A stretch of 23,719 nt of DNA, taken from NCBI GenBank assembly GCA_040220235.1, contig JAVJTO010000058.1; one strand, 5' to 3'. This DNA is from Coleofasciculus sp. B1-GNL1-01 (lineage in GTDB: Bacteria > Cyanobacteriota > Cyanobacteriia > Cyanobacteriales > Coleofasciculaceae). A program made the translations under genes and the position numbers. Under the pieces are notes generated by a model, which did no database searches, was not told where the DNA came from, and worked only from the letters and a program-made list of their open reading frames with translations. Numbering within the stretch: the stretch's first letter is position 1; every line of letters begins with the position of its first letter. This document shows positions 16,335 to 18,552 of the stretch, one piece after another.

Positions 16335-16382
16335 TACGTTTTGAATCCTGAAGGGTCTACATCTATTGTAGGGAACGGGGAA

Positions 16383-16530
16383 TGGGGAGCAGGGGGAGAT
16401 GGGGGAGCAGGGGAAGCAGGGGGAGCAGGGGGAGATGGGGGAGCAGGGGGAGCAGGGGGAGCAGGGGGAGCAGGGGGAGCAGGGGGAGATGAGGGAGCAG
16501 GGGGAGATGGGGGAGATGGGGGAGATGGGG
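16383..16530. repeat. G-rich 9-mer array (GGGGGAGCA/GGGGGAGAT) x ~16
   Basis: Read directly; lies between the divergent larC and atp1 starts. Confidence 0.95.
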
Positions 16531-16639
16531 AAGGACAAATGACCAATAACGATTAAAAATGCTTTAAGTATTGTTACTTTGGCGTGGTATGATCGCCTAT
16601 GGCTAGATGCGATCCAGCCAAATTTAGATGGACTAGCGT

Positions 16640-17095
16640 TTGCTGCTGCCTGTGAACTTGTCAGACGACTCTGTACAACCCAAGCCCACACCCGAGGAAA
16701 GTCCACCAGGGAGTTCTCAGACTTCCCCTGAAAATTCCTCAATGCAAGAGTACTACCAACTTAAACAAACGTTGTTGTCAGTCACTCTAGCAATGACAGG
16801 GGTGGTTTTTGTCTCTGTCTGGATTTTTTACTCACTCAACATCGCCTTGAATTATTTGATCGGGGCGTGCGTTGGTGTGGTTTACTTGAGAATGTTGGCG
16901 AAAGACGTTGAGCGGTTAGGTGTCCAAAAGAGGCGTCCGAGTTCAACTCGGTTGGCTTTATTGATTGGACTATTAGTCGTTGCCAGTCAATGGCAGAGTT
17001 TACGCATTCTGCCCATATTTTTAGGATTTCTGACGTATAAAGCTGCGCTCATTGCTTATATGCTGCAAAGCACCTTGTTGCCTACGTCGAAGTAA
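16640..17095 (+). CDS. atp1: ATP synthase protein I (Atp1/UncI-like)
   Basis: [29 protein letters not shown] and [10 protein letters not shown]; first gene of the cyanobacterial atp operon. Exact start uncertain (TTG 16640 or 16658). Confidence 0.9.
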
Positions 17096-17116
17096 GTTCC
17101 CGTTATCAGGACAGCC

Positions 17117-17255
17117 AACGCTTGTGAAAAGTAGGGTAGACTACACCCGAACTTAACGCCTGTGGACAAAGGAGTCAACTCCCTTGGGTGAAGCAGGAAA
17201 CAGAAAAAGCAATTGTTCAATGGACAATTGTGAATCAAGTCTGTGTAGTCATTTC
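17117..17255 (+). mobile_element. Probable remnant of a tnpB 3' end / omega-RNA region (IS607/IS605-type)
   Basis: From 17131 translates VG*TTPELNACGQRSQLPWVKQE, recalling TnpB C-terminal tails (..ACG..KQE). Three hairpins, including CAATTGTTC-AAT-GGACAATTG. Family assignment is from recalled similarity only. Confidence 0.5.
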
Positions 17256-17297
17256 AACCAAAGGATAAAAGATAGCTGGGGAAATCTCCGGATGGAA

Positions 17298-17424
17298 GTC
17301 AACTTCCCCGCCCATAGCCTAGCTATGGACGAGGCTTGAAAATTTCCCATTGTAGTTTATGGCGCGGCTTTCTAACCGCCCATACACAGTATGGACGAGG
17401 TATCCAGCCGCGAAAGAAAGAAGG
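17298..17424 (+). mobile_element. 127-bp miniature IS200/IS605-superfamily element with IscB/HEARO-like ends
   Basis: Starts GTCAACTTCCCCGCCCATAGCCTAGCTATGGACGAGGCTTG and ends CGCGGCTTTCTAACCGCCCATACACAGTATGGACGAGGTATCCAGCCGCG..., i.e. two related subterminal hairpins in direct orientation. Immediately followed by ATGA. Removal restores ATG GAA ATG ATA. Confidence 0.75.
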
Positions 17425-18159
17425 ATGATAGATGGTTTGGCGTTCTATAATGCTTTCCCCCTTGCTGAATTAGAAGTTGGTCAGCATCTGTACTGGCATA
17501 TTGGTAATTTGAAGGTTCATGGTCAGGTGTTTATTACCTCCTGGGTCGTGATTGCCATTCTTATCATTGCCTCGATTGCTGCTACCCGAAACATTCAGCG
17601 CATTCCTAGTGGTCTCCAAAATTTTATGGAGTATGCCCTGGAATTTTTGCGGGATTTAGCCAAAAATCAGATCGGGGAGAAAGAGTACCGTCCCTGGGTG
17701 CCGTTTGTGGGGACGTTATTTTTGTTCATTTTTGTGGCAAATTGGTCTGGGGCACTTGTTCCCTGGAAGCTGATTGAGCTACCCGAAGGTGAATTAGCGG
17801 CACCAACCAGTGATATTAATACTACAGTGGCGTTTGCGCTGCTGACCTCCTTAGCGTATTTTTACGCGGGTCTGAGCAAGAAGGGCTTGGGGTATTTTGC
17901 TGGTTATGCTCAACCAACTCCCATCCTGCTGCCGTTTAAGGTTCTGGAAGATTTTACCAAACCTCTCTCCCTCAGTTTCCGTCTGTTTGGCAACATTTTG
18001 GCAGATGAACTGGTGGTGGCAGTATTGGTGTTGTTGGTTCCCCTGTTCGTACCTCTCCCGGTGATGGCATTGGGTTTATTTACCAGTGCGATTCAGGCGC
18101 TGATCTTTGCTACCCTAGCAGCGGCTTATATCGGAGAGGCGATGGAAGACCATCACTAG
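17425..18159 (+). CDS. atpB: F0F1 ATP synthase subunit a (cyanobacterial atpI)
   Basis: [48 protein letters not shown]. Start set at MIDGL (17425) because the upstream extension lies in the inserted element. Confidence 0.97.
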
Positions 18160-18243
18160 CGATTTGAGGCTAGTGATCAAGATTTGCCACTTCCTTCTGA
18201 TGAACAATCAAAGAATTCGGCTGTGTCTAGCGAATTAGTTTAG

Positions 18244-18552
<309 letters not shown>

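Follow-up and report, generated by a model that had tools for sequence, protein, structure and literature searches.

A 127-bp IS200/IS605-derived insertion before the third codon of ATP synthase subunit a in Coleofasciculus, and its relatives at gene starts

ISC transposons carry a 5'-GT end and insert between any base and ATGA (N/ATGA) without duplicating their target, according to the main text of Kapitonov, Makarova and Koonin (2016, PMC4810608). For IS608 of Helicobacter pylori, the main texts of Morero (2018, PMC5934647) and He (2011, PMC3201880) describe 4-nt guides 5' of the foot of each hairpin that recognise the cleavage sites by base pairing, the first guide base with the second base of the site and the second guide base with the first (PMC5934647). 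Among the PATEs of archaea, deletion of the core to a single-palindrome form is known (Dyall-Smith 2011, main text of PMC3119063). Finally, iscB elements favour positions with a same-strand upstream gene, their guide being transcribed from host DNA, as set out in the main text of a preprint by Meers (bioRxiv 2023.03.14.532601).

The insertion described here lies in a stretch of 23,719 nucleotides from Coleofasciculus sp. B1-GNL1-01 (assembly GCA_040220235.1, contig JAVJTO010000058.1, our C58), hereafter the window, in a genome of 8.66 Mb with 45.5% GC. Our preferred reading, to which we give a probability of about 0.7, is that the insert, 127 bp long, consists of both ends of an IscB/IsrB-type IS200/IS605 transposon and entered, with no duplication of the target, before an ATGA at codon 3 of the gene for ATP synthase subunit a, and that the gene probably stays functional because translation restarts at Met3, just after the A-rich tail of the element. 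The site is in the main atp operon, with atp1 (ATP synthase protein I / CGL160-type; 16742..17095, plus strand; Pfam PF24763 and PF03899, start from our own gene model) upstream and subunit a downstream. The insert occupies 17298..17424, with no strand assigned to it as a whole, opens with GTCAAC and closes with GAAGG; it is preceded by ATG (17292) and GAA, and followed by ATGATAGAT from 17425. The ATGA target (17425..17428, plus strand) is ancestral codon 3 plus one base and likely the new start, as judged from the alignment of relatives and the gene model. Further upstream, between the preceding gene and atp1, short purine-rich tandem repeats at 16341-16556 (GGGGAGATG units near 16500-16530) give rise to a spurious ORF.

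In a search of 40 relatives, the match to the subunit a region was split exactly around the insert in 8/8 congeners, and the empty site was found in all eight and in all 21 further loci of the family and order that were compared. The empty congener sites read ATGGAA followed by ATGATAG (six of eight) or ATCATAG (two of eight), encoding M-E-M-I-D-G-L and M-E-I-I-D-G-L respectively, and no base is duplicated. An earlier note, written from the letters of the window, had proposed a clean 127-bp insertion without target duplication and an empty site in the 5' region of subunit a of related strains. Both are borne out by these comparisons, and its coordinates (ATG 17292, 127 bp from 17298, resumption at 17425, hairpins at ~17308 and ~17376) all hold.

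Seven public runs were examined as assembled contigs over the subunit a locus. Metagenome run X1 has contigs across both junctions of the insert, from a strain about 97-99% alike, and run X10 has one contig across the right junction. In runs X16 and X9, which come from two further studies, 17343-17424 is present but 62 other letters stand in place of 17205-17342; this allele thus retains the left half of the insert only, the 138 replaced nt taking in the right hairpin and possibly Met1, and the X9 record extends just 30 letters past the right junction. Empty alleles were found in X13, X14, X17 and a second X9 contig. The insert is absent from all three RNA runs examined (X13, X14 and X17), whose contigs are uninformative on expression, and separate searches of metagenome contigs gave 0 matches to it. 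A 17-mer search of public genome contigs returned three cyanobacterial (Coleofasciculus) matches among the best 80 of 119, the rest being taken as chance. Together the filled, partial and empty alleles indicate a genuine insertion that varies in presence among close strains and has begun to decay. That the insert was made by faulty assembly is hardly conceivable, given that independent runs carry it at the same site and show strain differences besides.

The top strand of the transposon corresponds to the minus strand of the window. Folded in that sense, the element forms two hairpins at -26.5 kcal/mol (z = -4.64), and 0/200 shuffles were as good. The hairpin repeats begin at 17308 and 17376, and CGCGGCT at 17363-17369 pairs with AGCCGCG at 17406-17412, confirming the two related hairpins and the outer stem that had been proposed by eye. 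Reading along the window, the right-end cleavage site TGAC (17298..17301, minus strand), recognised by sequence comparison, appears on the plus strand as a HEARO-type GTCA start. It is followed by the right-end subterminal hairpin (17306..17334, minus), which on folding and comparison with a longer sister on contig C6 corresponds to helix 1 of the omega/HEARO RNA that longer relatives carry, and by the guide CAAG (17335..17338, minus), adjoining the hairpin foot on its 5' side in top-strand sense, which by fold and guide placement fits TGAC. A middle spacer (17340..17362, no strand assigned), taken to be the deletion junction and found nowhere else in the genome or the loci, contains an ATG at 17359, in frame with subunit a, from which the protein would be 22 residues longer. 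Beyond it, the left-end structure (17363..17412, minus) consists of the outer stem around an inner hairpin at 17376-17400 and is a fold common to full-length RRXRR elements; its guide GATA (17401..17404, minus) fits the target TCAT, ATGA on the plus strand, in a check of fold and guide that is partly circular, the search pattern having contained the guide. The element ends in an A-rich tail (17413..17424, plus), now the leader of Met3, which is 4 nt longer than that of its sisters through an AAAG duplication.

Right-end guides were assessed across related ends. With automatic placement, guide and cleavage site fit at all three pairs in 13/30 ends, which fall into three co-varying types (TGAC/CAAG in eight, TGAA/CAAT in four and TTAC/AAAG in one); of the three base pairs, the one joining the fourth bases is our assumption, drawn from IS608's own sequences. 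Permutation gave a mean of 6.2, and 0/10,000 permutations reached 13, albeit among ends which are related rather than independent. Several of the misses resemble 1-nt misplacements of the hairpin foot, and others are decayed. In a fold-based test, confounded by competing helices, the fit was 8/18.

Several features place the insert in the IS200/IS605 superfamily: subterminal imperfect palindromes at both ends, no target duplication, a fixed 4-nt target beside the left end and 4-nt guides matching the cleavage sites. Its 5'-GT(C)A end and N/ATGA target are those of ISC transposons. However, the insert is without an ORF, it lacks the encoded IscB/IsrB and omega (HEARO) RNA of that class, and an Rfam scan of 16500-18400 gave no HEARO match within it and two chance-level matches only. 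It is therefore regarded as an ISC derivative, PATE-like, rather than as ISC proper. With PATEs it shares the absence of protein and of terminal inverted repeats, together with near-terminal palindromes related to IS605-type ends; several near-identical full-length copies, as expected of a homogeneous PATE, are lacking, there being one copy in the genome. A MITE was considered and rejected, as the insert has neither terminal inverted repeats nor a target duplication. The original classification, a non-autonomous IscB/HEARO-type derivative of IS200/IS605, is thus upheld by the guides, the ends, the ATGA target and the full-length parents.

A number of parallels and differences can be drawn with the described systems, as far as their main texts go. 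Like ISC1-1_MA of Microcystis aeruginosa (PMC4810608), the insert has a 5'-GT terminus, subterminal hairpins, a position 5' of ATGA without target duplication and a cyanobacterial host, and it was presumably mobilised in trans as well; unlike ISC1-1_MA, it has no iscB or isrB gene and no omega RNA past the first helix. Like PATEs (PMC3119063) and the PATE-like minis of Meers 2023, it is gene-less with palindromic, IS605-related ends, the 5' and 3' palindromes being similar, and core loss by repeat-mediated deletion to a single-palindrome form is a further likeness to PATEs. Unlike PATEs, it is bacterial, ISC-derived, single-copy at its length and the leader of a core gene. The 4-nt guides lie 5' of the hairpin feet and pair with the cleavage sites as in IS608 (PMC5934647, PMC3201880), the distance from target to left foot being 24 nt in the insert, about 20 in its sisters and 19 in IS608. 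In contrast, the target is TCAT rather than the TTAC of IS608, and the insert is non-autonomous, a TnpA substrate as predicted from sequence alone. The TAM of ISGst IscB elements, TTCAT, is the reverse complement of ATGAA, and these elements share the bias for a same-strand upstream gene and the guide from host transcription (bioRxiv 2023.03.14.532601); the main text of that preprint describes an orientation bias, but no start-codon parking and no donation of stops or leaders.

Genome-wide searches matched 19 HEARO, 26 RRXRR, 13 Y1 transposase and 51 TnpB-type sequences. An nhmmer profile of the left end, built without the ATGA, found 10 ends at E < 0.001 in this genome, and 10/10 are followed by ATGA after 5-11 nt. 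The left end of the insert also closes full-length elements of 1360-1435 bp in genus g13, so that full-length copies, which the earlier note had suggested seeking, exist as eight RRXRR-type loci sharing the 3' end of the insert. The ORF of the one g13 element scanned matches RRXRR (PF14239) and falls below the cut-off of the IscB model NF040563 (91 < 175 bits), and is thus likely IsrB-type. A candidate helper, judging by its sequence, is the TnpA (NF033573, 142 bits) of an intact IS200/IS605 element on contig C86, which ends at ATGA. Hairpins near-identical to the right hairpin of the insert were seen at C94:18459-18491 and C121:21532-21563; the C94 copy ends a TnpB element, which suggests a shared transposase.

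The 127-mer may itself have been the mobile unit, a homogeneous PATE that landed at its present size. Both ends and both guides are intact, and a single-hairpin copy on contig C9 matches the collapsed insert at 55/57 letters, implying that a very close sister was once active in this genome. However, no second full-length 127-bp copy was found in this genome or in 300 other genomes of the order, the middle spacer is unique, and the sisters come in many lengths (54-57, 90, 135, 204 and 384-449 bp), one of them visibly shrinking in place. Arrival at 127 bp is in our view a serious contender, though not the favourite. We lean slightly towards a longer arrival, the middle of which would have been lost in place, as a sister visibly did at ndhK; in terms of size, the parents are 1.36-1.44 kb and HEARO-only forms 380-450 bp.

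That sister is a 449-bp HEARO-only element at the ATGA stop/start overlap of the ndhC/ndhK joint (G000:C6:80876-81324; L033, L064), present in this genome and in 5/8 congeners and absent from 3/8. The downstream gene was identified as ndhK by PF01058, and the upstream gene is presumably ndhC. The empty site reads TGG TCA TGA and the filled site TGG TCG TAA, so that the first bases of the element supply the upstream stop and no residue is changed. In congener G004 the sister has shrunk from 449 to 135 bp, and a second element sits in the same ATGA. Nesting of this kind was seen at the G004 ndhK site (L065/L228) and at folD (L063/L162), in each case with an element of the sister subfamily B at the same ATGA behind an older element of subfamily A, to which the insert belongs. 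It follows that the leading TT of B belongs to the element, and that the TT/GA target listed for ISC1-2_CC in the main text of PMC4810608 is probably N/ATGA.

The single-hairpin forms (54-57 bp) occur at several sites, one of which has a precise empty site in two congeners, and collapsing the 127-bp insert over either internal repeat reproduces two natural forms of this kind. A fitting right-end guide is kept in 0/6 collapsed or shrunk copies, which are therefore predicted to be immobile. All congeneric genomes seen (5/5) carry a fixed left-end stub in front of a pfkB gene. Further members of the family were noted in passing. A HEARO-only element at G000:C21:~29300-29880 (L291), its end type the same as that of the autonomous IS605 on C86, ends in a distinctly purine-rich, SD-like tail, and the ATGA that follows opens an ORF of 466 aa, which we take to be encapsulin-like. 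At one start codon, a HEARO-type remnant in congener G003 (L393) differs from that at G000:C31:37100, which suggests independent hits on one site. A right-end-only remnant (L385, G005:C25) lies in the leader of a gene starting ATGA, presumably trigger-factor-like. Finally, HEARO RNA and the first codons of an RRXRR gene lie between two ribosomal protein genes, which we take to be rplF and rplR, at G000:C64:11846-12042 (L290); the left end has been lost, and the site is empty in 5/5 relatives.

The earlier note held that the native start codon had been the target. Alignment of subunit a from 29 relatives corrects this: by our own count Met stands at positions 1 and 3 in 18, at position 1 only in eight and at position 3 only in three, which indicates that the usual ancestral start is Met1 and that the ATGA target is the in-frame Met3. 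The native leader, GGGGAAATCTCCGG (17278..17291, plus), is kept in relatives. It had been credited with a ribosome-binding site of its own, and is SD-like in a loose duplex test (-6.6) but gives just a 3-nt match in a strict one. By translation, ancestral Met1 now heads a 15-codon uORF, MEVNFPAHSLAMDEA (17292..17339, plus), whose stop is inside the element. From Met3, F0 subunit a is intact at 244 aa (17425..18159, plus; TIGR01131 above cut-off). It differs from the genes of the eight congeners by 9-23 synonymous and 0-3 non-synonymous codons and, among the matches listed, by 10 and 1 from the insert-bearing X1 allele and by 4 and 3 from the X16 allele; by these counts the gene stays under purifying selection, with the X16 comparison pointing the other way. 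It is predicted likely to restart at Met3, as the gene starts in 3/29 relatives. ATP synthase subunit a is in general essential. The genome encodes a second F0 subunit a of the alternate type (36% identity; G000:C94:69628-70350, L399), so that strict essentiality is only assumed for the copy in the window; in the N-type F1F0 ATPase operon on C94 to which the second copy belongs, a possible alpha subunit ORF seems split in two. Scans for promoters and terminators found none of the former and, on the minus strand, a single terminator-like site no better than chance.

Subunit a might instead be made from the element's ATG at 17359, or by re-initiation coupled to the uORF, in place of independent initiation at Met3. 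That ATG is in frame and 19 nt past the uORF stop. However, it lies at the foot of the left-end stem, its context ranks at the 20th percentile of start contexts, below Met3, and it would add a basic N-terminal tail, probably unfavourable at the luminal end of a membrane protein. Coupling is further disfavoured, if tentatively, by the X16/X9 allele, in which 62 other letters take the place of the stretch holding the uORF as it stands here. Both routes appear improbable, and independent initiation at Met3 is retained.

The tail, AAAGAAAGAAGG, had also been proposed to serve as a ribosome-binding (Shine-Dalgarno) site, a proposal that the SD tests, run with the universal anti-SD since the host 16S tail is missing from the assembly, do not sustain. 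At -1.2 kcal/mol, the duplex in the new leader of Met3 is equalled or exceeded in strength by 75% of 4,117 genes, and the strict match is 0 nt, AAGG abutting the ATG; a 4-nt match at usable spacing is present in 0/25 subfamily-A ends, versus 28% of genes. A weak position model of start context (1,546 starts, AUC 0.76) places Met3 at the 31st percentile of real starts with the insert versus the 0th without it, and native Met1 at the 6th only. On this model the tail is plausibly an A-rich, SD-less leader for Met3. As an improvement of the leader, the AAAG duplication was considered and rejected, the model score not rising (0.02 vs 0.30) and the gain in accessibility being small (0.39 vs 0.30).

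It could be argued that replacing the ribosome-binding site is what the element is designed for, and that the family lives on starts because its members bring such a site with them. The rise of Met3 in the position model would agree with this, as would the promotion of initiation by A-rich leaders (Saito 2020, main text of PMC7043885) and the behaviour of subfamily B, in which GAGG-type, SD-bearing ends lie at starts in 10/18 cases versus 7/30 without an SD (p = 0.03). However, the subfamily devoid of usable SDs, A, is the more start-bound of the two, its tails fall far short of real starts (p = 3e-5) and are alike at start and non-start sites (p = 0.49), and the tail sequence varies freely. 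The A ends are not designed ribosome-binding sites, and the wider argument is unlikely to hold. Of the general strategy first envisaged, start targeting coupled to a donated site, the concentration on starts is borne out by the enrichment, and the donation finds modest support, in subfamily B only, but fails for A.

That such elements integrate at ATGA or GTGA is a statement that likely goes back to Weinberg in 2009. By our own gene caller, 14.4% of 22,550 non-internal ATGA sites open a coding frame. The tally of copies preceding start codons, proposed in the earlier note, was taken from the best 30 or fewer loci per search plus supplementary searches. It places 18/25 distinct subfamily-A sites at predicted starts among the matches listed, or 16/25 conservatively, with L276 (a probable internal Met) and L261 (an ATG upstream of the likely start) as non-starts; a 26th site, L075, was dropped as a chance match inside a gene. 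Subfamily B is at starts in 17/48 sites among the matches listed (p = 2e-4 vs the null), fewer than A (18/26 vs 17/48, p = 0.007). Non-start copies lie near same-strand starts in 4/7 cases for A and 15/31 for B, against 21.7% expected, and the TnpB-type ATGA family intended as a control has two members only. The enrichment is inflated, since the null counts all non-coding ATGA as harmless, the gene caller is our own and the search pattern for most outside sites included ATGA.

These biases raise the question of whether the enrichment is mostly an effect of counting: gene-adjacent copies would keep their ATGA and stay recognisable, others would decay or be missed, and much intergenic DNA would not be truly tolerant. 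Four orthologous copies without ATGA at a non-start site (C142) illustrate such loss, and the ATGA in the search pattern works in the same direction. However, the census of the insert's own genome, made without ATGA, still gives 6/10 at starts (p = 0.001), and the full-length g13 copies are at called starts in 8/9 distinct sites, or 6/9 minus two doubtful ones. A mere counting effect is thus doubtful, and the start-codon enrichment of subfamily A is real. A guide RNA derived from host transcription (main text of bioRxiv 2023.03.14.532601) offers a reason for placement near same-strand starts, the excess of A over B being left unaccounted for.

On our preferred reading, events at the locus may be reconstructed as follows. 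The guides at the hairpin ends fit TCAT and TGAC, and a Y1 TnpA acting in trans would have pasted the single strand next to TCAT, by extrapolation from the work on IS608. After the putative loss of the middle, Met1 heads a dead uORF and the Met3 frame is intact, and initiation at Met3 would be SD-less. The family would collect on starts because insertion at a sense-direction ATGA there leaves the reading frame whole and places the element on a host transcript, required by IscB-type elements to make their guide RNA. Once it has become a gene's leader, the left end would be kept, and decay of the remainder would leave stubs of that end or scars with a single hairpin. The model does not account for subfamily B, which depends on host transcription too but is found at starts less frequently.

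The element class, target, guides and decay route have been described before. In literature searches and in the main texts consulted, no report of parking on start codons, of stop donation or of leader takeover came to light; 'start codon' occurs 0 times in the main texts of PMC4810608, PMC3119063, PMC9208149 and PMC13565253, and once in the Meers preprint. New relative to print is the pile-up on start codons, even those of core genes. It is attractive to consider, albeit tentatively, that IscB/IsrB elements with an ATGA target parasitise gene starts and operon joints in a way that is transparent to translation. Their target would be a start codon or an ATGA stop/start overlap, their first bases can replace an upstream stop, as seen at ndhC/ndhK, their last bases would replace the leader, and retention of the element would depend on guide RNA from the host transcript. 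As they decay, such elements may continually furnish core cyanobacterial genes (atp, ndh, folD and ribosomal proteins) with new 5' leaders.

Elements of this family can also restore signals lost on insertion, namely a stop codon at ndhC and a leader at subunit a. The locus offers natural alleles (empty, full 127 bp and left-end only) and the family two subfamilies differing in SD content, so that insertion bias, RNA-guided retention and host selection can be tested against one another directly. The same material may show how SD-less initiation tolerates a hairpin 12 nt upstream.
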